Shown: one piece after another, positions 3,783 through 56,964 of the stretch
How the letters are laid out: every line of letters begins with the position of its first letter
How positions within the stretch are numbered: position 1 is the stretch's first letter
Origin: Escherichia phage VpaE1_ev78
Direction: 5' to 3' (one strand)
DNA length: 64,000 bases
Sequence record: LR597663
Translations under genes and position numbers: made by a program
The notes under the pieces: generated by a model
Database searches by the model: none
What the model was told of the DNA's origin: nothing
Seen by the model: only the letters and a program-made list of their open reading frames with translations

Positions 3783-4331
3783 ATGAAGAAATTGATTCTA
3801 GGTTTGTGCTTAATGTTTACAGCACACTTATCTTATGCAGTTGACTGCCCAGAGCTATCAATTAGCCAAAAAGTAAACATGTTAAAAGCTTACCAGTATG
3901 GTGAGAATAACATGGGTAAAGGTTGGGGTATCACTCTAGCTGCTATAGCCTTACAAGAGTCAGAGTTAGGTCTGAAGGTAGAGAATAAAAAGACACATGA
4001 TTATGGTATTTTCCAGAATCACTTGAAGACTGTTGTAAAGCGTAACAAAATTAGTCCTAATGTGGCTAAAAAGAAACTCTTAAAAGACTTTGACTATGCT
4101 GCAAAGGAAACGCACAAAGAACTTGAGTTTTGGACAAAGGTGCATGGTCAGCCAAAGTCAAAGAAGACTTTACAAAAAGTTTTAGCATCATATAATGCTG
4201 GGTATTCGTACAGAATCCCTAAAGCTAAGAAGTATTCTCAAGATGTCTATAACAACATGAAAGTTATTGCTCAATGTGAATTTGCAACAAACATTTCTAA
4301 GGTAAATCATGAAAAAATTAAGAAAGTCTGA
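3783..4331 (+). CDS. Secreted protein with lytic-transglycosylase (SLT)-like motifs
   Basis: 182 aa; N-terminal signal peptide MKKLILGLCLMFTAHLSYA; AIALQESELG ... DYGIFQ resembles SLT catalytic Glu-Ser and GLMQ-type motifs; GGAG RBS. Confidence 0.45.
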   Translation: MKKLILGLCLMFTAHLSYAVDCPELSISQKVNMLKAYQYGENNMGKGWGITLAAIALQESELGLKVENKKTHDYGIFQNHLKTVVKRNKISPNVAKKKLLKDFDYAAKETHKELEFWTKVHGQPKSKKTLQKVLASYNAGYSYRIPKAKKYSQDVYNNMKVIAQCEFATNISKVNHEKIKKV

Positions 4332-5004
4332 TGAAGTACTGTGTCATGCTTATGACTTACACCCTCATGAGTTAGGTCTTAATTCCTGTGTATGGACTCC
4401 AGAACAGTGTAGGGATTTTGAAGACACCGCAAGAGAAGTTGTATGTTCACTCGAAGAGTTCCACACATCAGAGCCAATTGTGAATGTTGTAGATAAAGAG
4501 ACTGGACAAACTATAGGCGTGAGTCGTGATAGCTTAGTCATAGTCAATAAAGACCTTGTAGAAAAAGGGAATCTCATCTTAGCAGATATTGATGGTGTTC
4601 TTACAAATTTTAATCACGAAGATTGCTCAACGGAATTGACTGATGGTTCATTCTCACAGTATACCAATCTTCTTGATTCTGTAAGAGCAAAGCCAACGTA
4701 TGTTTTCAATATCATTGATGCAATTGCTAATCATGCTGCCATTGGACTCTTGACAGCGAGAGGTGAATCTCAGAGAATACCTACTGAGATGTTTTTAAGG
4801 CATTACATAGAGCATGATTACATGCTTTTTATGCGTGGTTTTGGGACTAACTCTATAAGTGCAGAAAGTTTGAAAGTGAGGATGATTCAGTCTTGCATTC
4901 TGCCTTACTTTAATATAGTATGCTTTATAGAAGATACAGAGAAGAATGTGCAGAAGGTGAACAGAATCCTTCCACACATTAAAACCATGTTAGTTAAACA
5001 TTGA
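4309..5004 (+). CDS. HAD-superfamily phosphatase-like protein (possible 5'(3')-deoxyribonucleotidase)
   Basis: 231 aa; HAD motif I ILADIDGVLTN (DxDGV), downstream T/S and D motifs; overlaps previous gene by 23 nt. Confidence 0.4.
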   Translation: MKKLRKSDEVLCHAYDLHPHELGLNSCVWTPEQCRDFEDTAREVVCSLEEFHTSEPIVNVVDKETGQTIGVSRDSLVIVNKDLVEKGNLILADIDGVLTNFNHEDCSTELTDGSFSQYTNLLDSVRAKPTYVFNIIDAIANHAAIGLLTARGESQRIPTEMFLRHYIEHDYMLFMRGFGTNSISAESLKVRMIQSCILPYFNIVCFIEDTEKNVQKVNRILPHIKTMLVKH

Positions 5005-24824: not shown

Positions 24825-26240
24825 ATGAGCGAATTATTTAAACATGCGCACCTTCATGCAGGTCGAACTGAAAATGGTGCTGTAAACCATACTTCATCAA
24901 TGTCTGCTCTTGTGGACTTTTATAAAGCTGCTGGTTCAAGCCGTAGCAATGTAGAAGTCTTACCAGACCTGTTCTACAAAGCTTTGCGTGAGGATGTTGA
25001 TGTTGCAGTTCGTATTTTGCTTCATATGCGAGATGTACGAGAAGGTATGGGTGAGCGTAAAGCCTTCAGAACTGTTTTGCTTCAAGCGATTGAAGACAAA
25101 GTTTTAGAGCCTGTACAGGTTCTTCGCATTATGGATAAGATTGCAGAACTTGGTCGTTTTGATGACTTCAAAATCTTCGTAGGTACTCGTTTCGAGACAG
25201 ATGCCTTCAAACATTTAGAAGCAGCATTACTAGACCCTGCAACAGCAGGTTTGGCAGCCAAGTGGCTACCACGAGTCAAACCACGTCATAAGCAGTTTGT
25301 AAAACGTTTCTGCAAGTTTGCCAACTTGAGTGAGAAAGAGTACCGCACACTGTTGTCTGCACTATCTGATACAGTTGAGCAAAAAATCTCTGCTAATGAG
25401 TTTGGTAAGATTGACTACAGTAAGATTCCTTCTCTTGCTGCTGCACGTTACCAAAAGCTGTTTAACCGTAAAGATGGAGAGCGTTACAAAGCTTACATCG
25501 AGTCCTTATCAAAGGGTGAGGCTAAGATTAATGCTGGTGCTGTTTACCCATACGATGTGATTAAATCTGTCAAGCATGGTAATGCAGATGTTGCTAATGA
25601 GCAGTGGAAAGCACTACCAAACTGGATGGCAGAAGGTGAAAACATCTTATGTATGACTGATGTTTCAAGCTCAATGTCTTGGGTGAATTTTGGCTCCATT
25701 ACTGCTCTTGATATTGGTGTATCACTTGCCTTGTATGTAGCAGAACGCAATACAGGTTGCTTTAAGGATGAGTTGATGGTTTATTCAACAAACCCTCACT
25801 TCATCGAACTGAGTGGTGATTTACGAAACCGTCATCGTCAGGTGATGCGACACGTTGAATATGGCTCAACCAACTTACAAGCAGCTTTTGACCGCATTCT
25901 TGAGATAGGTAAGAGAAACAACTTGACTCAGGAAGATATGCCAAGTAAGCTTATCATCTTCTCCGATATGGAGTTCAATCAGGTTGATGGAGCTAACGGT
26001 CGTACAAACTTTGAAGCAATTCAGAGCAAGTACAAGAAAGCTGGATATGAGATGCCACAACTGGTATTCTGGTACTTAGCAAACCGTAATGGTACTTGCG
26101 AAGTGTCTGTTAAGGATAACGGTGTAGCAATGGTATCTGGTTTCTCTCCAGCCACTTTAAAAGCTCTGCTTGGTGGTGAGAAGTTTGACCCAATCAGCGT
26201 AATGCTCAAAGCAGTAATGATTGACCGCTATATCTGGTAA
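24825..26240 (+). CDS. vWA-domain protein with helical N-terminal domain (possible TROVE/Ro60-like architecture, unverified)
   Basis: 471 aa; C-terminal about 190 aa has MIDAS-like D-x-S-x-S (MTDVSSSMS) and later acidic motif FSDMEFNQ typical of von Willebrand A domains. Confidence 0.5.
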   Translation: MSELFKHAHLHAGRTENGAVNHTSSMSALVDFYKAAGSSRSNVEVLPDLFYKALREDVDVAVRILLHMRDVREGMGERKAFRTVLLQAIEDKVLEPVQVLRIMDKIAELGRFDDFKIFVGTRFETDAFKHLEAALLDPATAGLAAKWLPRVKPRHKQFVKRFCKFANLSEKEYRTLLSALSDTVEQKISANEFGKIDYSKIPSLAAARYQKLFNRKDGERYKAYIESLSKGEAKINAGAVYPYDVIKSVKHGNADVANEQWKALPNWMAEGENILCMTDVSSSMSWVNFGSITALDIGVSLALYVAERNTGCFKDELMVYSTNPHFIELSGDLRNRHRQVMRHVEYGSTNLQAAFDRILEIGKRNNLTQEDMPSKLIIFSDMEFNQVDGANGRTNFEAIQSKYKKAGYEMPQLVFWYLANRNGTCEVSVKDNGVAMVSGFSPATLKALLGGEKFDPISVMLKAVMIDRYIW

Positions 26241-26405: not shown

Positions 26406-26482
26406 CTCTGTTTAGCTCAGCTTGGTAGAGCGTTCCGTTTGGGGCGGTAAGGCCGGAGGTTCAAGTCCTCCAACAGAGACCA
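26406..26482 (+). tRNA. tRNA-Pro (anticodon TGG), CCA encoded
   Basis: 7 bp acceptor ctctgtt/aacagag, D-loop with GG, T-arm ggagg-ttcaagt-cctcc; hand-folded. Confidence 0.55.
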
Positions 26483-26489
26483 AATTAAT

Positions 26490-26567
26490 GTTCCAGTAGA
26501 CAAAATGGTAAAGTCACCACTCTTTCAAAGTGGATATCTGAGGGTTCAAATCCCTTCTGGAACGCCA
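26490..26567 (+). tRNA. tRNA-Glu (TTC)
   Basis: Acceptor gttccag/ctggaac, anticodon stem ccact/agtgg with loop ctTTCaa, T-loop ttcaaat, CCA encoded. Confidence 0.6.
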
Positions 26568-26574
26568 GTTTTGA

Positions 26575-26648
26575 CAGAAGACCAATTGCAGCAAACTTAA
26601 TCTTATTCATCTGAAGGTAAATCGGACAAAGAAGAGATTTGGTCTGGT
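26575..26648 (+). repeat. Inverted-repeat-bracketed element, copy 1 (cagaagacca ... tggtctgg)
   Basis: Conserved 5' end cagaagacc(a/g)..t.cagcaa and 3' end ggtctgg shared by four elements; ends are mutually complementary. Confidence 0.55.
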
Positions 26649-26658
26649 CATTAAGAAT

Positions 26659-26735
26659 TGCGGGTATAGAGAAAGGGCGTCTCACATGTCTCATTAGCAT
26701 GGTATCGGCAGGTTCGACTCCTGCACCCGCCTCCA
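26659..26735 (+). tRNA. tRNA with CAT anticodon (Met/Ile2/initiator type); acceptor register uncertain
   Basis: D-stem gaga/tctc, anticodon stem catgt/gcatg with loop ctCATta, T-arm gcagg-ttcgact-cctgc; 1-72 appears mismatched. Confidence 0.4.
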
Positions 26736-26741
26736 AATTTA

Positions 26742-26806
26742 CAGAAGACCGTTTACAGCAATATTTATTAAATTTTTAGCGGAAAAAATTGAAAGATACG
26801 GTCTGG
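26742..26806 (+). repeat. Inverted-repeat-bracketed element, copy 2
   Basis: 5' acagaagaccgtttacagcaa identical to copy 4; 3' cggtctggtaa. Confidence 0.55.
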
Positions 26807-26819
26807 TAACACTAAACAT

Positions 26820-26896
26820 GGTTAGGAAGCACATAAGGTATGTGCGGTCGCCTGTTAAGCGAATGGCACAGGGTTCGAATCCCTGACTAACCGCCA
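26820..26896 (+). tRNA. tRNA-Asn (GTT)
   Basis: D-stem gcac/gtgc, anticodon loop ctGTTaa, T-arm caggg-ttcgaat-ccctg, CCA encoded. Confidence 0.55.
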
Positions 26897-26905
26897 AATT
26901 TAAAT

Positions 26906-26993
26906 GTGTCGTTATCCCGTAGATGGTAGCGGTGGGGACTGTAAATCCCTTGTCATTGAGACTCGGTAGGTTCGACTCCTACACGGCACACCA
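26906..26993 (+). tRNA. tRNA-Tyr (GTA), long variable arm
   Basis: Acceptor gtgtcgt/acggcac, anticodon loop ctGTAaa, 88 nt with extra arm, T-arm gtagg-ttcgact-cctac, CCA encoded. Confidence 0.6.
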
Positions 26994-26998
26994 ATAAA

Positions 26999-27076
26999 GG
27001 TTATGTAGTTTAATTTGGTTAAAATACTCCCCTGTCACGGGAGATGATGAGGGTTCAAATCCCTTCGTAACCGCCA
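26999..27076 (+). tRNA. tRNA-Asp (GTC)
   Basis: Acceptor ggttatg/cgtaacc, anticodon stem ctccc/gggag with loop ctGTCac, T-loop ttcaaat, CCA encoded. Confidence 0.65.
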
Positions 27077-27137
27077 ATTTTGAGAGGGCTATTTAGCCCC
27101 TCCCTTAAAGAGTTCTTACGAGTATTCTTTAAAGGAG

Positions 27138-27211
27138 CAGAAGACCAAATACAGCAAGTTATTTAAAATTTCAAGCCAATTTAATTTTGAAAAATTTAAA
27201 ACTTGGTCTGG
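27138..27211 (+). repeat. Inverted-repeat-bracketed element, copy 3
   Basis: cagaagaccaaatacagcaag ... cttggtctgg. Confidence 0.5.
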
Positions 27212-27224
27212 CTCAACAAATTTA

Positions 27225-27355
27225 CAGAAGACCGTTTACAGCAAAACTTAACAATCTATTTCTCCGGTAAAGAAAAGGCGAAGGTTCGATTCCTTCACTC
27301 GGCAGATGTCGAGTTGGTGTAATGGTAGTACTTAAGATGATAAACAACGGTCTGG
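27225..27355 (+). ncRNA. Inverted-repeat-bracketed element, copy 4, carrying tRNA-like fragments (candidate structured ncRNA or decayed tRNA)
   Basis: Same conserved ends as copy 2; interior has a T-arm gaagg-ttcgatt-ccttc (27280-27296), a 7 bp hairpin (27297-27314) and a D-arm-like tggtgtaatggtagtac, but no anticodon arm. Confidence 0.4.
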
Positions 27356-27504
27356 TAATTATCTTTGTAGATAAGTTATTAAGCTTACCTGTGAGTATGC
27401 GACCACAAAGGGTGAAAGGGTAAATTCTAGATTTAAACCCAAAAAGGCACATCGCTACAGACCTTAAGCAAGTCTGGGTAGCTTATCTACAAAGATAATT
27501 TAAT

Positions 27505-27580
27505 GGAAGTGTAGCAGAATGGTGATGCGGCAGACTTTTAATCTGACAGGCGATGGGTTCGAATCCCTCCACTTCTACCA
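27505..27580 (+). tRNA. tRNA-Lys (TTT)
   Basis: Acceptor ggaagtg/cacttct, anticodon loop ctTTTaa, T-loop ttcgaat, CCA encoded; T-stem appears short. Confidence 0.5.
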
Positions 27581-27584
27581 ATAT

Positions 27585-27661
27585 GGTTCAGTCGCAGATA
27601 AGGTAATGCAAGGGTCTCATAAGCCCTATGAATGTGGGTTCGATTCCCATCTGAACCTCCA
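27585..27661 (+). tRNA. tRNA-Met (CAT)
   Basis: Acceptor ggttcag/ctgaacc, anticodon stem agggt/gccct with loop ctCATaa, T-arm gtggg-ttcgatt-cccat, CCA encoded. Confidence 0.6.
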
Positions 27662-27662
27662 A

Positions 27663-27738
27663 GCTGGTATAGTTAAGAAGGTTATAACACTCCCCTGATA
27701 AGGGAACATCGGTGGTTCGATTCCACCTACCAGTACCA
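27663..27738 (+). tRNA. tRNA-Ile (GAT)
   Basis: Acceptor gctggta/taccagt, D-stem gtta/taac, anticodon loop ctGATaa, T-arm ggtgg-ttcgatt-ccacc, CCA encoded. Confidence 0.65.
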
Positions 27739-27753
27739 ATTTCAATAAAGTTG

Positions 27754-27782
27754 TTGACATTGAGATGTGACTACTTTATAGT
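27754..27782 (+). promoter_or_regulatory. Sigma70-like promoter (TTGACA-17-TATAGT) inside tRNA region
   Basis: Consensus -35, 17 nt spacer, TATAGT -10. Confidence 0.55.
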
Positions 27783-27986
27783 AACCTTAGTTTTCGTTGC
27801 GTAGCGTCTATTTTGCAAATTTAAAATAAATGCAAACGACAATGTTTTTCTGGCAGTAGCTTGATAGGCTAAACACCAGTGAGGTCTTCCAATCCCTCAT
27901 CAAAGAATTTGGCGTACTCGCCCACGGTATGATTAATAAGGTGGGCATCTTTAAGGGCTTTCTAAGAGAGTCTTTAAAGATAATTA

Positions 27987-28068
27987 CGGGGCGTATCTCA
28001 GCGGTCTTCTAAACCGCCGTTAACCGAGTAAGTGGAGTATGCGGGTTCGAGTCCTGCCGCCTCGACCA
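27987..28068 (+). tRNA. Atypical tRNA-like gene (no clear D-arm; anticodon-type loop ctTCTaa); identity unresolved
   Basis: Acceptor cggggcg/cgcctcg, T-arm gcggg-ttcgagt-cctgc and CCA present; only one perfect 5 bp stem-loop in the body, 23 nt between it and the T-arm. Confidence 0.3.
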
Positions 28069-28082
28069 ATTTTGGAGAAATC

Positions 28083-28430
28083 ATGAAAACTTGTATTAGG
28101 TGCAAACTTAGCAAGGATGAAAATGATTTCTACATGAAAGATGGTAGGAGAACTCATTCATACTGTAAAAAGTGTGTTAATGAGCAAACCATAGAAAGAC
28201 AAAGAGCACTTAAACTCTCAGCTATTGAGTACAAAGGTGGGGTTTGTCACGATTGTGGTAAAAAGTATCATCCAGCAGTGTATGACTTCCATCATTTGAA
28301 TCCTTCAGAGAAAGATTTTAACATTGGTCATAGGAAAAGCCTTAAGTTCTCTCAAGAACTAAAAGATGAACTTGACAAATGTGTTTTGCTATGTTCAAAT
28401 TGCCATAGGGTAAGACATGCAAAGTATTAG
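28083..28430 (+). CDS. HNH endonuclease with N-terminal zinc finger
   Basis: Start at ATG (MKTCIRCK) with GGAG RBS; CxxC...CxxC then DFHHLNP...LLCSNCHRVRH (HNH motif); track start 28032 lies in the upstream tRNA. Confidence 0.6.
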   Translation: MKTCIRCKLSKDENDFYMKDGRRTHSYCKKCVNEQTIERQRALKLSAIEYKGGVCHDCGKKYHPAVYDFHHLNPSEKDFNIGHRKSLKFSQELKDELDKCVLLCSNCHRVRHAKY

Positions 28431-28573
28431 TTAGCAGATTACTTAGACGACCTAAGCGGGTCTTCCTGTAGGGAGGTGGTCTGTATCTCATGTTTTCCAG
28501 AACATGTAAATAATCTGAGAAGAAGCTTGACAGTGTTGAGATAACAGGGTAAGCTTCGAATTATAGTTTTAAT

Positions 28574-28644
28574 AGGGGTGAGCTATGGCAGCAATAGAGT
28601 CTCCAAAATTCTTGATTAGAGTTCGAATCTCTACACCCCTGCCA
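28574..28644 (+). tRNA. tRNA-Trp (CCA)
   Basis: Acceptor aggggtg/cacccct, anticodon loop ctCCAaa, T-arm tagag-ttcgaat-ctcta, CCA encoded. Confidence 0.5.
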
Positions 28645-28658
28645 GAACAGGTGCTTGT

Positions 28659-29063
28659 ATGAAACTTTGTAGAAAATGTTCTCAAGAAAAGCCTTTAAGC
28701 TGCTTTCATAAAAGAGGTAATGGCTATCAGTCTGCTTGCAAAGATTGTAAAGCTAAGTACTCAGCAAAGAGATACAAAGAAGACCCTACTTATAAAGCAA
28801 AAAGAAAAGTTAGGGCAAAATATGACAAAAAGAGGAACAGAGAGTTCCTTAGTAGATATAAAAAGTTTTGCAAATGCAGAATATGTGGCGAATCTGAGCC
28901 AGTAGCTTTGGATTTTCATCACTTAGACCCTAAAGAGAAAGATTTTGCTCCAAGCAATCTTAAAACTTACTCTAGGGGCACTATTAAGCGTGAAGTCCGT
29001 AAGTGTGTTGTGCTTTGTTCAAACTGTCATAGGAAAGTTCATGAAGGACTGTTAAGTATTTAA
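28659..29063 (+). CDS. HNH endonuclease with N-terminal zinc finger (paralog of 28083-28430)
   Basis: 134 aa; CRKCSQEK...CKDC zinc finger and DFHHLDPKEKDF...VLCSNCHRKVH HNH motif. Confidence 0.6.
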   Translation: MKLCRKCSQEKPLSCFHKRGNGYQSACKDCKAKYSAKRYKEDPTYKAKRKVRAKYDKKRNREFLSRYKKFCKCRICGESEPVALDFHHLDPKEKDFAPSNLKTYSRGTIKREVRKCVVLCSNCHRKVHEGLLSI

Positions 29064-29076
29064 CAGTCTTATTAGG

Positions 29077-29164
29077 GGTAGGTAGCGGCTAATGGTAGCC
29101 AAACTGTCTTGAAAACAGTTGCCACTGTAGAGATACGGTGAGGGTTCGACTCCTTTACTTACCG
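29077..29164 (+). tRNA. tRNA-Ser (TGA), long variable arm
   Basis: Acceptor ggtaggt/acttacc, anticodon stem actgt/acagt with loop ctTGAaa, 88 nt with extra arm. Confidence 0.6.
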
Positions 29165-29323
29165 CCTAATAAGATTTAAAGCCAAGCTTCATTCGGATGT
29201 TGCTTTGGTATCCCGCGTGTATTGTTGTACACACTGATAAAGCACCTAGTAGGTGTCACGGAGAAGAGATAATATCAAGCTCTCCAAAGGTTCTAGTCAC
29301 CGGATTAAACAAGACTATGCAAA

Positions 29324-29350
29324 GACCTTTTTAGGTCTTTTTAGAGGGCT
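29324..29350 (+). terminator. Terminator-like hairpin
   Basis: aaagacc-ttttta-ggtcttt followed by TTAG. Confidence 0.4.
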
Positions 29351-29421
29351 TCTAAGGTTATTACAGCTTGTTGTGGAACCTTGTTGCTTAGGTTCTTAGA
29401 AGTTCTCTAAAAAGATTTAAT

Positions 29422-29499
29422 GGGAGATTGACGGTAATTGGTAAACCTATCTCGCTTAGAACGAGATGTTTGAGGGTTCGAATCCCTTGTCTCCTACCA
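29422..29499 (+). tRNA. tRNA with anticodon TAG (Leu-type) but short variable loop
   Basis: Acceptor gggagat/gtctcct, perfect anticodon stem tctcg/cgaga with loop ctTAGaa, T-arm gaggg-ttcgaat-ccctt, CCA encoded; only 5 nt variable region. Confidence 0.45.
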
Positions 29500-29506
29500 A
29501 ATTAAT

Positions 29507-29582
29507 GCAGGTGTAGCAAAATGGTTATGCGGCTGACTCTTAATCAGTAAGACGATGGGTTCAATTCCCTCCACCTGTACCA
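29507..29582 (+). tRNA. tRNA-Lys (CTT)
   Basis: Acceptor gcaggtg/cacctgt, anticodon loop ctCTTaa, T region gatgggttcaattccctcc like the Lys(TTT) gene, CCA encoded. Confidence 0.5.
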
Positions 29583-29587
29583 AAAAT

Positions 29588-29663
29588 GGGGTCATAGTTT
29601 ATATGGTTAAAATTCGAGTTTTGCAAACTTGGGAACTGAGTTCAATTCTCAGTGACTCCACCA
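29588..29663 (+). tRNA. tRNA-Ala (TGC)
   Basis: Acceptor ggggtca/tgactcc, anticodon stem cgagt/acttg with loop ttTGCaa, T-arm ctgag-ttcaatt-ctcag, CCA encoded. Confidence 0.6.
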
Positions 29664-29669
29664 ATTAGT

Positions 29670-29744
29670 GCATCCATAGTTTAAACGGGAAAATTACAGT
29701 CTTCCAAACTGAGGTTGAGGGTTCGATTCCCTCTGGATGCTCCA
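29670..29744 (+). tRNA. tRNA-Gly (TCC)
   Basis: Acceptor gcatcca/tggatgc, anticodon loop ctTCCaa, T-arm gaggg-ttcgatt-ccctc, CCA encoded. Confidence 0.6.
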
Positions 29745-29751
29745 AATTAAT

Positions 29752-29827
29752 GCTCCTATCGTATAATTGGCTATTACGGTTGCCTTGTAAGTAACTTATC
29801 AGGGTTCGAATCCTTGTGGGAGCACCA
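29752..29827 (+). tRNA. tRNA-Thr (TGT)
   Basis: Acceptor gctccta/tgggagc, anticodon stem gttgc/gtaac with loop ctTGTaa, T-loop ttcgaat, CCA encoded. Confidence 0.6.
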
Positions 29828-29924
29828 ATTTAGAGGTCAAGTGAAAGACCGCTTTGAGTCAACTGAAGACCGTAACAAATTCCACGGAGTTGAGTTAGCG
29901 GCACAACTCCAGACCTCTTCTCAC

Positions 29925-29999
29925 ACTCGCTTAGTTTATATGGTAAAACACCACCCTTACAAGATGAAGAAAAAGGTTCAAGTCCTTTAGTGAGTACCA
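29925..29999 (+). tRNA. tRNA, anticodon uncertain (possibly TAC, Val)
   Basis: Acceptor actcgct/agtgagt, T-arm aaagg-ttcaagt-ccttt, CCA encoded; anticodon stem pairs poorly. Confidence 0.4.
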
Positions 30000-30000
30000 T

Positions 30001-30078
30001 GTTCCAGTATCCCAATTGGCAGAGGATGCAAGCTCAAACCTTGTACTAGTGATGGTTCGAATCCATCTTGGAACACCA
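30001..30078 (+). tRNA. tRNA with anticodon CAA (Leu-type) but short variable loop
   Basis: Acceptor gttccag/ttggaac, anticodon stem gcaag/cttgt with loop ctCAAac, T-arm gatgg-ttcgaat-ccatc, CCA encoded. Confidence 0.45.
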
Positions 30079-30083
30079 ATTTT

Positions 30084-30159
30084 GCAGGATTAGTTCAAAT
30101 GGATAGAGCAACAGTCTACGAAGCTGTTAATAGGGGTTCAAATCCCTTATCCTGCGCCA
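30084..30159 (+). tRNA. tRNA-Arg (ACG)
   Basis: Acceptor gcaggat/atcctgc, anticodon stem acagt/gctgt with loop ctACGaa, T-loop ttcaaat, CCA encoded. Confidence 0.6.
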
Positions 30160-30178
30160 ATTTAAAGAGGCTATTTAG

Positions 30179-30736
30179 ATGAGATATTTGAAGTATGCTT
30201 CATGGATTTTCTTAGCTTTGTTAGAACCATTTGCAGCAATCTTAGCAGTTATCTTAGCACCTTTTGTAGTTCCATTCTACAGTGAGAAGAAAGGACACTT
30301 ACCTTTCGGGTTCAGATGGATGGAGACATATGACAACCCAATTGATGGTGATGAAGGTCACGTTAAAAGATGGGCTAATATTAGATGGATTGGTAAACTA
30401 GGTGTCTACATGCAAAGAGTCGGATGGCTCTGGAGAAACAAAGCTTATAACTTCTCTTACCATGTGTTAGGAAGAGATGTAAAAGATGTTACTAAGTGGA
30501 AAGGTAATATCAACGTAAGTTCTAACCCTGAAGATAATCAGACAGGTTATCTCCTAATGTGGAACAGTAATGCTTGGGGATTATTCGCTTTTACCCCATC
30601 AATTAAAATCTTTGGTAAACAGTTTTACTGGAGAATTTATATTGGGTGGAAGCTAAAAAGTGTTGTCCCAGAAGAAAGAGCATTCTCAAGGGAAAGAGTT
30701 ATGTTGGCATTCTTTATTCATCCACTAAGAAAGTAA
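30179..30736 (+). CDS. Hypothetical membrane protein embedded in tRNA array
   Basis: 185 aa; AAGAGG RBS; hydrophobic N-terminus WIFLALLEPFAAILAVILAPFVVPF; Trp-rich. Confidence 0.5.
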   Translation: MRYLKYASWIFLALLEPFAAILAVILAPFVVPFYSEKKGHLPFGFRWMETYDNPIDGDEGHVKRWANIRWIGKLGVYMQRVGWLWRNKAYNFSYHVLGRDVKDVTKWKGNINVSSNPEDNQTGYLLMWNSNAWGLFAFTPSIKIFGKQFYWRIYIGWKLKSVVPEERAFSRERVMLAFFIHPLRK

Positions 30737-30744
30737 AGATTTAA

Positions 30745-30820
30745 AGGGGATTAGTTTACAAGGTTAAAACCTCGGTCTTTGAAATCGAAGAAGTTGGTTC
30801 AATTCCAACATCCCCCGCCA
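30745..30820 (+). tRNA. tRNA-Gln (TTG)
   Basis: Acceptor aggggat/atccccc with 1-72 mismatch, anticodon loop ctTTGaa, T-arm gttgg-ttcaatt-ccaac, CCA encoded. Confidence 0.5.
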
Positions 30821-30822
30821 AT

Positions 30823-30901
30823 GCTCCATTACTCCAATTGGCAGAGAGGCCAGACTTAAAATCTGTGTTATGTATCGGTTCGAATCCGATATGGAGTACC
30901 A
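30823..30901 (+). tRNA. tRNA with anticodon TAA (Leu-type), atypical fold
   Basis: Acceptor gctccat/atggagt, 4 bp anticodon stem with loop ctTAAaa, T-arm atcgg-ttcgaat-ccgat, CCA encoded; 8 nt variable region. Confidence 0.4.
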
Positions 30902-30905
30902 AATT

Positions 30906-30981
30906 TAGCGGTATAGCATAACTGGCAATGCAGCAGCCTCTGAAGCTGTCCTATTAAGGTTCAAATCCTTATGCCGCTGCC
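30906..30981 (+). tRNA. tRNA-Gln (CTG)
   Basis: Acceptor agcggta/tgccgct, anticodon stem gcagc/gctgt with loop ctCTGaa, T-loop ttcaaat, CCA encoded. Confidence 0.5.
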
Positions 30982-31012
30982 ACTTCTAAGGATTCTTACG
31001 AGAGTCCTTAAA

Positions 31013-31088
31013 TGTGGCCTTATCATAAATGGTAATGACCCATGCTGTGAACATGGTCTATACGGGTTCAAATCCCGTAGGTCACCCC
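31013..31088 (+). tRNA. tRNA-His (GTG)
   Basis: Acceptor gtggcct/aggtcac, D-stem tcat/atga, perfect anticodon stem ccatg/catgg with loop ctGTGaa, discriminator C, CCA encoded. Confidence 0.65.
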
Positions 31089-31092
31089 AATT

Positions 31093-31168
31093 TATAGTCC
31101 AAGTAGCTTATATGGTTAAAGCGCGTGTCTGAAAAACATGAGAAGAGGGTTCAAATCCCACTGGACTA
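31093..31168 (+). tRNA. tRNA-Phe (GAA)
   Basis: Perfect 7 bp acceptor tagtcca/tggacta, anticodon stem cgtgt/acatg with loop ctGAAaa, T-loop ttcaaat. Confidence 0.6.
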
Positions 31169-31187
31169 CCAATTTCAAAGGTGCTTA

Positions 31188-31922
31188 ATGAAAGAGATGA
31201 CAGAACAAGGTAAGGAGATTTTTAATCTCTTAAAAACCGGTAAAGGGTTCTCTAACCCACTTATTACTGGTGCAGCAGTTCTCGGTGGAACCGTAGCTGC
31301 TTCTACATCACTTGTAAGCTCTATTAGTTCTGTAACAGACCCTACAATGAAGGAGAAACTTGTTGCTGCTGGACTTACAACAGTCCTTCTAAACAGCTTT
31401 ACAACAAGCCTTACAAGCACTACAGCAACTACTAAAACTCTGACAGACTACGGTCAAAAGTCTATTGATGAGTTTTCATCACGTATGCAGGTAGCAAAGG
31501 GGTATTCCAATGTTATGGGTGCAGCAGGAGAACAAGTTGGTTGTACACCATTCAGTGGTATCATGGGTGTTGCTACAGAGTATGGTCAAAAAGCTATTGA
31601 CATGATGAACAGTACACTAGATAGTGTTAATGGTGTGTTAAGTGACTTGCAAGATGCTATTGATAAGGGTCTTGATACTGTTTCTGATTTAGCTAATCAG
31701 GCTGTTAGTAAGATTAATGAAGGTATTTCAAAGATTACAGCTTATGCAGATGAAGTTGTGCAGATGATTGAAGAAGAAGCTGCCCTTATTGCAGAGTACC
31801 TTAAAACGAATATCAATGGGTTCTTAGCAGGTATCTTACCAGACTGGTTTGATGATGCCTGTAAAACTGGTGTGATTGACACTATTGCAACACCAGAAAT
31901 GAAGAGCGCATTACAGAAATAA
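31188..31922 (+). CDS. Hypothetical Ser/Thr-rich protein
   Basis: Start at internal ATG (MKEMTEQ) with AAAGGTG RBS, because track start 31125 lies inside tRNA-Phe. Confidence 0.45.
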   Translation: MKEMTEQGKEIFNLLKTGKGFSNPLITGAAVLGGTVAASTSLVSSISSVTDPTMKEKLVAAGLTTVLLNSFTTSLTSTTATTKTLTDYGQKSIDEFSSRMQVAKGYSNVMGAAGEQVGCTPFSGIMGVATEYGQKAIDMMNSTLDSVNGVLSDLQDAIDKGLDTVSDLANQAVSKINEGISKITAYADEVVQMIEEEAALIAEYLKTNINGFLAGILPDWFDDACKTGVIDTIATPEMKSALQK

Positions 31923-31924
31923 AT

Positions 31925-32017
31925 GGAAGATTAACCCTAAAAGGTAAGGGAGCAGTTTGCTAAACTGCCAGTAGCTGAGAAATCGGTGTACCAGTTCAAG
32001 TCTGGTATCTTCCTCCA
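31925..32017 (+). tRNA. tRNA-Ser (GCT), long variable arm
   Basis: Acceptor ggaagat/atcttcc, anticodon stem gcagt/actgc with loop ttGCTaa, 93 nt with extra arm, CCA encoded. Confidence 0.65.
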
Positions 32018-32021
32018 ATTT

Positions 32022-32097
32022 GAATCCGTGACAGAAATGGCTATGTGCCTGTCTGCAAAACAGGTTTATAAGGGTTCGAGTCCCTTCGGATTCTCCA
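32022..32097 (+). tRNA. tRNA-Cys (GCA)
   Basis: Acceptor gaatccg/cggattc, anticodon stem cctgt/acagg with loop ctGCAaa, T-arm aaggg-ttcgagt-ccctt, CCA encoded. Confidence 0.65.
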
Positions 32098-56064: not shown

Positions 56065-56964
56065 TTACTTACCTACTGACAGAGGTGCTTCAATCTTCCC
56101 TGCATGTTGGTAGTTGTTAATTCCACCAATAAAGTCACTTGCAGTAAGATGTTTTAAGTCACTTAAAGTGTTAAGCTGTACACCAATCTCAAAAGTAGGT
56201 GCATGAAACTCTTCATTGTTCATCAGTTCATAGACCTGCTTCATATGGTTATGATAAATCTGAGTATCTCCAAAGACACCTATCAAGTATCGTGGAGTGT
56301 ATCCAGTCATCTTGCAAAGAACTTCCAGAATAAAACCATAAGATGCAATGTTAAACGGAAGTCCTAAAAAGGTGTCTACAGAACGTTGATACCATTGTAA
56401 GTCAACTTCACCTTCGTTAGTGATATAAATCTGAAACAGAACATGACAAGGTGCTAAAGCCATTGAGTTAGCTGCAATATCTGCTGCATTCCAAGCATTA
56501 ACAAGCATGTAACGGTCTGTGATATCACCTTTCATCTTCGTTACTAAGGTCTCTAACTGGTCTACAACACAACCATTATGACCTTCAAAGTTTCTCCACT
56601 GAACCCCGTAGATTCTCCCACCTGCATCCTCTAACCAATCTTGTTCAGAAGAATAGTTAGAGCTTAACCAGCGTTTAAAATCATCTGACCAGATAGTCCA
56701 GCGTTCCCCATCATTTTCACCCCAAGTACGGTAACGAAGTTCACCAAGCTTATTCTCACCGTTCAGGAACCATAAAGCTTCCCCAATAACTTGCCTTGTA
56801 AACACCTGTTTAGATGTTAAGAGTGGGAAACCAGTACGCATATCAAAACGAAACTGTGGTGGAGCAAATGCAGAGATAACATCTCCAGTTCTTGTAGTAC
56901 GCAGTTCACCAACGGATAAAACATGGTTCAGGATATTTTTGTAACTTGTATCTGCTTGTGACAT
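56065..56964 (-). CDS. thyA: Thymidylate synthase (ThyA family)
   Basis: 299 aa; FPLLTSK, EALWFLNGE, ALAPCHVLFQIYI (catalytic Cys), QRSVDTFLGLPFNIASY; Asn conserved in PFNIAS indicates dUMP specificity. Confidence 0.75.
   Translation of the reverse strand: MSQADTSYKNILNHVLSVGELRTTRTGDVISAFAPPQFRFDMRTGFPLLTSKQVFTRQVIGEALWFLNGENKLGELRYRTWGENDGERWTIWSDDFKRWLSSNYSSEQDWLEDAGGRIYGVQWRNFEGHNGCVVDQLETLVTKMKGDITDRYMLVNAWNAADIAANSMALAPCHVLFQIYITNEGEVDLQWYQRSVDTFLGLPFNIASYGFILEVLCKMTGYTPRYLIGVFGDTQIYHNHMKQVYELMNNEEFHAPTFEIGVQLNTLSDLKHLTASDFIGGINNYQHAGKIEAPLSVGK

Follow-up and report, generated by a model that had tools for sequence, protein, structure and literature searches.

Three tRNA-Leu genes without a long variable arm in the tRNA array of a FelixO1-like phage: class I in shape, leucine in identity

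Introduction

In textbooks, the long extra arm counts as an invariable trait of bacterial tRNA-Leu, and according to the sole detailed study of a natural exception, Escherichia coli leucyl-tRNA synthetase (LeuRS) cannot use an armless tRNA-Leu (Fan et al. 2019; PMC6614811). In the present study, we analyzed three tRNA genes with the leucine anticodons TAG, CAA, and TAA and without a long variable arm, located in the tRNA array of Escherichia phage VpaE1_ev78 (sequence record LR597663; the window, that is, the whole stretch of DNA under analysis, comprises 64,000 nucleotides, nt). Individual genes of this kind are known already, being annotated in hundreds of records, and the structural class went unnoticed because pipelines label tRNA-Leu by anticodon alone, occasionally as "Undet" (Erwinia phage phiEa104). 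Within the openly searchable literature, the term "type I tRNALeu" was found only in the study of Fan et al., and the same literature yielded no account of phages having armless tRNA-Leu as a trait.

Several described systems share part of the design. The type I tRNA-Leu(CAA) of Streptomyces coelicolor is likewise natural and armless, coexists with long-arm isoacceptors and a single LeuRS, and has a 5-nt variable loop of which the length, not the sequence, matters (PMC6614811). It differs in its loop (ACAGC, with C48), in a LeuRS whose leucine-specific domain is adapted, and in that A73 is not an identity element (PMC6614811), whereas the phage tRNAs have U48 and loops of 5 to 7 nt and would depend on an enterobacterial LeuRS. 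Other actinomycete chromosomal armless tRNA-Leu found here have the CAATTGGCAGA D loop of the phage CAA and TAA tRNAs. A Mycobacterium tRNA-Leu(TAG) also has a short variable loop and lies in a horizontally acquired tRNA cluster with an HNH endonuclease, with a normal long-arm copy on the chromosome alongside; it received a one-sentence mention, without analysis of identity elements, distribution, or function (PMC6582537), and probably represents the same phenomenon. Mitochondrial class I tRNA-Leu(UUR) shares the short variable loop and an identity resting on A73 and A14 (PMC9976931), but its D, T, and anticodon arms are reduced and fragile and it is served by a LeuRS of its own, in contrast to the full canonical D and T loops of the phage tRNAs. 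In addition, as far as a tRNA-identity review summarizes the SELEX (systematic evolution of ligands by exponential enrichment) work of Asahara (1998) and the minimalist RNAs of Larkin (2002), E. coli LeuRS charges armless tRNA-Leu given A73 and the D/T contacts (PMC9976931); judged from that summary, those constructs were laboratory-made, and the phage tRNAs look like their natural counterparts.

For reference, the tRNA-Leu genes leuZ, leuX, and leuW of E. coli and the tRNA regions of phages T4 and T5 were parsed in the same way as the window tRNAs. These host genes, T4 Leu, and T5 Leu(UAG) share leucine anticodons, A73, U8, U48, a canonical T loop, and an encoded CCA with the three phage genes, and those of E. 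coli and T4 also share a 3-bp D stem with an 11-nt loop NAAT[C/T]GG[C/T]A[G/A]A (host loops GAATCGGTAGA, AAATCGGTAGA, and AAATTGGTAGA). The difference lies in the variable region, which is 12 to 15 nt long with a stem in E. coli, T4, and T5 and 5 to 7 nt long here. Moreover, canonical class II tRNA-Leu has G9 and G12-C23, whereas two of the three phage tRNAs have A9 and C12-G23; the third, Leu(UAG), has G9 and G12-C23 but carries an extra nucleotide after position 9, and it has A37 in its anticodon loop (29455-29461) where leuW has G37.

Results

Structure of the three tRNA genes

ARAGORN called the following three tRNA-Leu genes, with arms and landmarks as listed.

29422..29499, + strand: armless tRNA-Leu(UAG), 78 nt, CCA encoded (ARAGORN; Rfam, 44.5 bits)
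29422-29428 and 29489-29495, + strand: acceptor stem of Leu(UAG), with the connector TGA (3 nt) at 29429-29431 and A73 at 29496
29432-29448, + strand: D arm of Leu(UAG), CGG-TAATTGGTAAA-CCT, followed by the anticodon TAG at 29457-29459, A37, and the variable region TGTTT at 29467-29471
30001..30078, + strand: armless tRNA-Leu(CAA), 78 nt (ARAGORN; Rfam, 43.8 bits)
30010-30026, + strand: D arm of Leu(CAA), TCC-CAATTGGCAGA-GGA, with C12-G23, preceded by T8 A9 and followed by the anticodon CAA at 30035-30037
30045-30050, + strand: variable region ACTAGT of Leu(CAA), with A73 at 30075 and CCA at 30076-30078
30823..30901, + strand: armless tRNA-Leu(UAA), 79 nt (ARAGORN; Rfam, 47.5 bits)
30832-30848, + strand: D arm of Leu(UAA), CTC-CAATTGGCAGA-GAG, with C12-G23, preceded by T8 A9 and followed by the anticodon TAA at 30857-30859 in the loop CTTAAAA
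30867-30873, + strand: variable region GTTATGT of Leu(UAA), with A73 at 30898 and CCA at 30899-30901

The initial annotation, made by hand folding, had given the same coordinates and anticodons and left open a wrong register, which the agreement of ARAGORN and Rfam on coordinates and fold refutes; folding by ARAGORN yielded neither other anticodons nor long arms. All three cloverleaves have a 7-bp acceptor stem, 5-bp anticodon and T stems, A73, and an encoded CCA, and both programs recovered the general tRNA features, including the T loop TTCRANY and G18G19. The full-length matches to the Rfam general tRNA model RF00005 had E values of 5e-8 to 5e-7 and lay well above its gathering score of 29. 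The variable regions are 5, 6, and 7 nt long in the TAG, CAA, and TAA tRNAs (the initial annotation had estimated 5 to 8 nt), which is not the stem-loop of more than 10 nt that characterizes class II, while the Ser and Tyr tRNAs of the same array, as had been noted, are long-armed, with variable arms of 15 to 21 nt. Leu(TAG) is the least regular of the three, with 3 rather than 2 nt separating the acceptor stem from the D stem, a mismatched 10-25 pair, and an Rfam match that begins 1 base late, at 29423.

Leucine identity elements

Known determinants of E. coli LeuRS are A73, the A15:U48 Levitt pair, G18G19, A20a, and tertiary pairs that join the D loop to the T loop (PMC9976931). Inspection of the three phage tRNAs revealed this set in each of them. 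The anticodons are of the leucine type (NAG or YAA), and the discriminator is A73, as in all 164 armless tRNA-Leu examined. T8, A14, and A15 all occur, and T (U48) is the last base of the variable region, so placed that U8:A14 and A15:U48 would pair. A 3-bp D stem closes an 11-nt loop NAATTGGYARA (TAATTGGTAAA in TAG, CAATTGGCAGA in CAA and TAA) that contains A14, A15, G18G19, and A20a.

The combination of A73, the Leu D arm, and U48 is nearly confined to tRNA-Leu. It was limited to the three tRNA-Leu within the window and occurred in 1 of 1,506 distinct non-Leu tRNAs, compared with 215 of 253 long-arm and 143 of 164 armless tRNA-Leu, the Leu counts being inflated by loci that were retrieved with a pattern holding part of the D loop, which leaves the specificity against non-Leu tRNAs unaffected. 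No other anticodon-independent synthetase fits, because the three lack the G3:U70 pair read by alanyl-tRNA synthetase (AlaRS) and the long arm and G73 read by seryl-tRNA synthetase (SerRS). The class I shape reported initially is therefore real, as the ARAGORN and Rfam folds confirm, but the "unusual identity" offered as its explanation finds no support in these elements or in the meaning of the codons (below): the three tRNAs are class I in shape and leucine in identity.

Conservation and covariation

The 2.2 kb around the three genes matched 257 phage records at 80 to 99.7% identity, nearly all of them Felixounavirus, namely, FelixO1/VpaE1-like myoviruses of E. coli, Salmonella, Shigella, and Citrobacter, and the window is itself Felixounavirus. 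Conservation of the genes extends across Ounavirinae, with more than 200 records in Felixounavirus and further occurrences in Kolesnikvirus and Mooglevirus. Compared with Felix O1, there is 1 difference in Leu(TAG), none in Leu(TAA), and 3 in Leu(CAA), two of which make one compensatory pair. The more distant Erwinia phage phiEa104 (Kolesnikvirus) carries armless tRNA-Leu with the anticodons caa, aag, and taa, 77 to 78 nt long. Against these, both partners differ at 7 of the 20 pairs of Leu(CAA), where no pair is broken, and at 13 of the 20 pairs of Leu(TAA), where at most one is, the 11-nt D loop being identical in both comparisons. When 116 armless tRNA-Leu were aligned, changes on both sides were seen at all 20 pairs, and 97.5% of cells were paired, compared with 36 to 47% (∼42%) when partners were slid by 1 to 3 columns, although sequences selected by ARAGORN fold by construction.

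Codon meaning and demand

The thymidylate synthase ThyA (56065-56964, minus strand; Pfam E value, 4e-73) was aligned with 80 homologues at 34 to 41% identity. Three columns are 100% Leu in the 80 homologues, and the window codons there are TTA, TTA, and TTG; mean Leu alignment was 0.58 at codons read by the phage tRNAs and 0.50 at host-only Leu codons. ThyA has no CTA codon. Over 71 orthologous open reading frames (ORFs) and 15,939 aligned codons, the window and Felix O1 exchanged TTG with CTG (19), TTA with CTA (32), and CTA with CTG (32) at 0.06 to 0.10 per codon, compared with 0 to 0.012 for nonsynonymous first-position T-C exchanges. The codons read by the phage tRNAs thus exchange at synonymous rates and are therefore synonymous with host-only Leu codons. 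TTA, TTG, and CTA mean leucine in this phage, and neither the invariant ThyA columns nor the exchanges show the pattern of a recoding or suppressor tRNA. Leucine codon usage in the window is TTA 28%, CTT 27%, TTG 14%, CTG 13%, CTA 12%, and CTC 6%; in E. coli, CTG makes up about half of Leu codons and CTA about 4%.

Distribution among viral and cellular genomes

A pattern restricted to armless tRNA-Leu with this D loop matched at least 120 loci in viral contigs. Among the matches listed, ARAGORN confirmed an armless tRNA-Leu in 107 of 120 viral loci; 98 of 99 Ser tRNAs and all Tyr tRNAs in the arrays of those loci were long-armed, and 30 of the 120 loci held both armless and long-arm tRNA-Leu. 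For a fairer comparison, a pattern taking short as well as long variable regions was run on viral and cellular genome contigs. Among the first 120 matches listed for each, 30 of 115 informative loci in the viral sample and 4 of 111 in the cellular one held an armless tRNA-Leu (odds ratio, 9.4; Fisher P = 1.3e-6), that is, ∼7 times more commonly in the viral sample, both samples being restricted to AATTGG-type D loops and YAR anticodons and the fractions being indicative rather than a census. The initial statement that phage tRNA-Leu is normally class II thus holds for T4 and T5, with their long arms of 12 to 15 nt, but fails as a generality, since about a quarter of the sampled viral Leu loci hold an armless one. 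The cellular cases were as follows.

L290:3550-3900: three armless tRNA-Leu plus a tRNA-Tyr in one cluster, in a metagenome-assembled genome of Planctomycetota
L239:491-566 and L277:2732-2806: single genes for armless tRNA-Leu(TAA), in the actinomycetes Gordonia and Herbiconiux
L334:4733-5010: a pair of armless tRNA-Leu in another genome

Most of these few cellular armless tRNA-Leu have the CAATTGGCAGA D loop, as in the window. Armless tRNA-Leu also occurs in unrelated cultured phages, with genes of 74 to 77 nt labeled plainly as tRNA-Leu; these include Bacillus phage P59 (Herelleviridae), cyanophage P-RSM6 (Kyanoviridae), Rhodococcus phage Trina, Providencia phage PR1 (Demerecviridae), and Xanthomonas phage X1. 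In Trina (L342:144-324), an armless Leu(taa) of 74 nt adjoins a long-arm Leu(caa) of 86 nt. A common metagenomic armless Leu(CAA) type (L013) had no relative among cultured phages at an E value of ≤1e-8.

Features that change with the arm

Variable-region length in viral tRNA-Leu is bimodal, with 113 tRNAs at 5 nt, further peaks at 13 and 15 nt, and few tRNAs from 7 to 10 nt. Among long-arm tRNA-Leu with a 3-bp D stem, 128 of 131 viral and all 100 cellular ones have G9 and G12-C23. Armless tRNA-Leu falls into a G9 type, with G12-C23 in 56 and C12-G23 in 20, and an A9 type, with C12-G23 in 49 of 49 (P = 7e-19); the A9 type includes the CAA and TAA tRNAs of the window and the Bacillus, Rhodococcus, and actinomycete copies. 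The two types could reflect a remodeled 9:12-23 triple or simply two lineages.

A second difference concerns position 37 of tRNA-Leu(NAG) (loci L007-L337). G37 was found in 53 of 55 cellular, 50 of 65 viral long-arm, and 6 of 21 viral armless tRNAs, 15 of the 21 having A37. Because G37 is the 1-methylguanosine (m1G37) site, many CUN-reading phage tRNA-Leu would be without that modification.

The array and its other elements

The array and its long-armed members are as follows.

26406..32097, all + strand: tRNA array of 26 ARAGORN tRNA genes with small ORFs interspersed
26906-26993, + strand: tRNA-Tyr, 88 nt, long variable arm (ARAGORN)
29077-29166, + strand: tRNA-Ser-tga, 90 nt, long variable arm (ARAGORN)
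31925-32017, + strand: tRNA-Ser-gct, 93 nt, long variable arm (ARAGORN)

The same array is annotated in Felix O1 and in phiEa104. A promoter/terminator scan of the array gave no excess (19 found versus 16.9 in shuffles).

Some of its other tRNAs are unusual. The tRNA-Glu at 26490-26567 (+) has a Leu-like D arm (3-bp stem and 11-nt loop AAAATGGTAAA), and T is the last base of its variable region; with G73, the full Leu signature is absent. At 28574-28644 (+), tRNA-Trp(CCA) is 71 nt long with a degenerate D arm that has no regular D stem, and its Rfam score of 33.2 bits is barely above threshold; the larger search did not recover it. In one of the two ARAGORN tRNA-Met(CAT) genes (26659-26735, +), T1 and C72 are mismatched, the connector is 3 nt long (ATA), the D loop is short, and position 73 is T; this gene, perhaps an initiator-like or some other aberrant tRNA, was not reported by Rfam at an E value of ≤1. 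An extra tRNA-like element at 27987-28065 (+), scoring 31.7 bits in Rfam (above the gathering score) without an ARAGORN call, overlaps the start of the ORF at 28032-28430, and a partial tRNA match of 22 bits lies at 27248-27297 (+); the two may be tRNA remnants from homing-endonuclease insertion. HNH matches of the ORFs at 28032-28430 and 28659-29063 are weak and subthreshold.

Two conserved ORFs of unknown function lie inside the array, at 30179-30736 (+; DUF7338, E value of 1e-61) and 31125-31922 (+; DUF7217, E value of 3e-87), and are present in Felix O1 as ORF48 and ORF49. Directly upstream of the first tRNA, a 471-amino-acid ORF (24825-26240, +) matches Pfam DUF7788 and DUF2828 and, weakly, vWA; its Felix O1 orthologue, ORF42, is annotated as an "RNA-binding protein," a sequence search of it against solved structures gave no match, and its position adjoining the array may be meaningful. 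A phage tRNA-repair context was considered, as Felix O1 ORF4 is annotated as a polynucleotide kinase, but it was set aside, since the window orthologue (4309-5004) has no Pfam match.

Discussion

We consider it quite likely that the three genes of this FelixO1-like phage encode functional leucine isoacceptors whose class II arm has been cut to 5 to 7 nt and which are most likely charged by host LeuRS. The tRNAs would be transcribed within the phage array with their CCA encoded, and host LeuRS would charge them with leucine, as it ignores the anticodon and reads A73 together with the tRNA corner (U8:A14, A15:U48, the G18G19 register, A20a, and the D/T-loop contacts), all of which appear to be kept. 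Between them they would serve UUA/UUG, UUG, and CUA/CUG (possibly CUU), codons used heavily by this AT-rich phage. No synthetase is annotated in the Felix O1 annotation. Loss of the arm would be possible in tRNA-Leu because LeuRS does not need it: arm size is the major identity element for tRNA-Ser and of low importance for tRNA-Leu (PMC9976931), and the Leu arm is therefore the one that can go. The simplest reading of the loss would thus be relaxed constraint.

Several observations weigh against this account. E. coli LeuRS was unable to charge the S. coelicolor armless tRNA-Leu(CAA) and has been described as charging type II only (PMC6614811), a failure that C48 in place of U48 in the Streptomyces tRNA may explain. 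The C-terminal domain of the enzyme contacts arm nucleotides 47f-47i, and its leucine-specific domain favors a large arm loop; armless charging is therefore possibly less efficient. The A9 and C12-G23 of the CAA and TAA tRNAs are unlike nearly all long-arm tRNA-Leu examined. In per-isotype nhmmer profiles built from ∼1,900 tRNAs after masking of the anticodons and removal of the variable regions and of armless tRNA-Leu, Leu ranked only second to third for the three tRNAs, although no more than 13 of 25 window controls (52%) were classified correctly; armless tRNA-Leu with a G9/G12-C23 core, from Xanthomonas X1 and Providencia PR1, scored strongly as Leu in the same profiles. Finally, the codon tests reveal the meaning of the codons and not their reader, as host tRNA-Leu alone with inert phage tRNAs would give the same result.

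Arm loss may instead be an adaptation by which phage leucine decoding resists toxins or nucleases that recognize or cut the class II arm, so that the phage keeps translating while host tRNA-Leu is attacked; we regard this as possible but unlikely. There are precedents for such attacks. E. coli tRNA-Tyr is cleaved within its variable loop by Retron-Eco7 PtuAB, and a phage tRNA-Tyr escapes by virtue of its different loop (PMC12673091). MenT3 grips the long loop of tRNA-Ser as a handle, and long-arm tRNAs appear to be the preferred targets of the abortive-infection toxin AbiEii. The viral enrichment described above, the tendency of armless Leu(NAG) to drop G37 as well, and the bimodal length distribution, suggestive of a switch under selection and not of gradual decay, all point the same way. 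However, no E. coli or Salmonella defense targeting the tRNA-Leu arm was found, none of PtuAB, MenT3, and AbiEii is known to act on enterobacterial tRNA-Leu, and the Ser and Tyr tRNAs of the same arrays stay long-armed; relaxed constraint on a dispensable arm, together with deletion bias in compact phage genomes, explains the restriction to Leu without any attacker. Retron-Kva2 was rejected as a precedent for arm evasion, as it cuts tRNA-Leu, but in the anticodon loop. The broader proposal, that armless tRNA-Leu is a recurrent, virus-enriched counter-defense, often with loss of G37 too, against arm-gripping or arm-cutting toxins of hosts or rivals (AbiEii/MenT type and PtuAB type) and is charged by enterobacterial LeuRS, can likewise be put forward only tentatively.

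An improbable alternative is that the tRNAs are made but little or not charged by host LeuRS and act as decoys or regulators rather than adaptors, for example as sinks for anticodon nucleases or modification enzymes or by engaging the sensors of uncharged tRNA. Such a role would accord with the failure of E. coli LeuRS on the only natural bacterial armless tRNA-Leu tested, with the remodeled core of two of the three (A9 and C12-G23), and with Rfam scores below those of every other well-formed tRNA in the array. It is harder to reconcile with the strict retention of A73, U48, and the Leu-type D loop across hundreds of divergent armless tRNA-Leu while the stems covary, as would be expected of a synthetase substrate, with the encoded CCA and anticodons matching the Leu codons most used by the phage, or with the activity that armless variants of E. 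coli tRNA-Leu retain in vitro (PMC9976931).

It is very improbable that the three, being class I tRNAs, accept some amino acid other than leucine, with TTA, TTG, or CTA partly recoded. The class I shape would suit it, and the improvised body profile places Asn, Tyr, Glu, or Gly marginally above Leu. The synthetases of these top-ranked isotypes, however, read anticodon bases that are absent from the three tRNAs, which counts against recoding. So do the accuracy of the classifier on controls (52%), the lack of G3:U70, a long arm, or G73, the TTA and TTG codons at invariant ThyA Leu columns, and the exchange of TTA, TTG, and CTA with CTG, CTT, and CTC at synonymous rates. An artifact, whether a wrong register or chance tRNA-like sequences, is scarcely credible, as nothing was found in its favor, two independent methods agree, and the genes occur in more than 250 phage records, where they are annotated as tRNA-Leu; pseudogenes were rejected on the evidence against these rivals.

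What appears to be new is the recognition of a natural armless tRNA-Leu with the full E. coli identity set, several-fold commoner in the viral than in the cellular sample. The design, present three times in a well-studied coliphage lineage, recurs in cultured phages whose hosts are Bacillus, cyanobacteria, actinomycetes, Xanthomonas, and enterobacteria. If charged, these tRNAs would be natural minimal substrates defining what LeuRS needs, as well as compact scaffolds for tRNA engineering. The counter-defense reading, if true, would contradict the published statement that LeuRS charges type II only. Armless tRNA-Leu may also provide a test case for whether phage tRNA structure, beyond anticodon-loop sequence, evolves to escape tRNA-targeting immunity.

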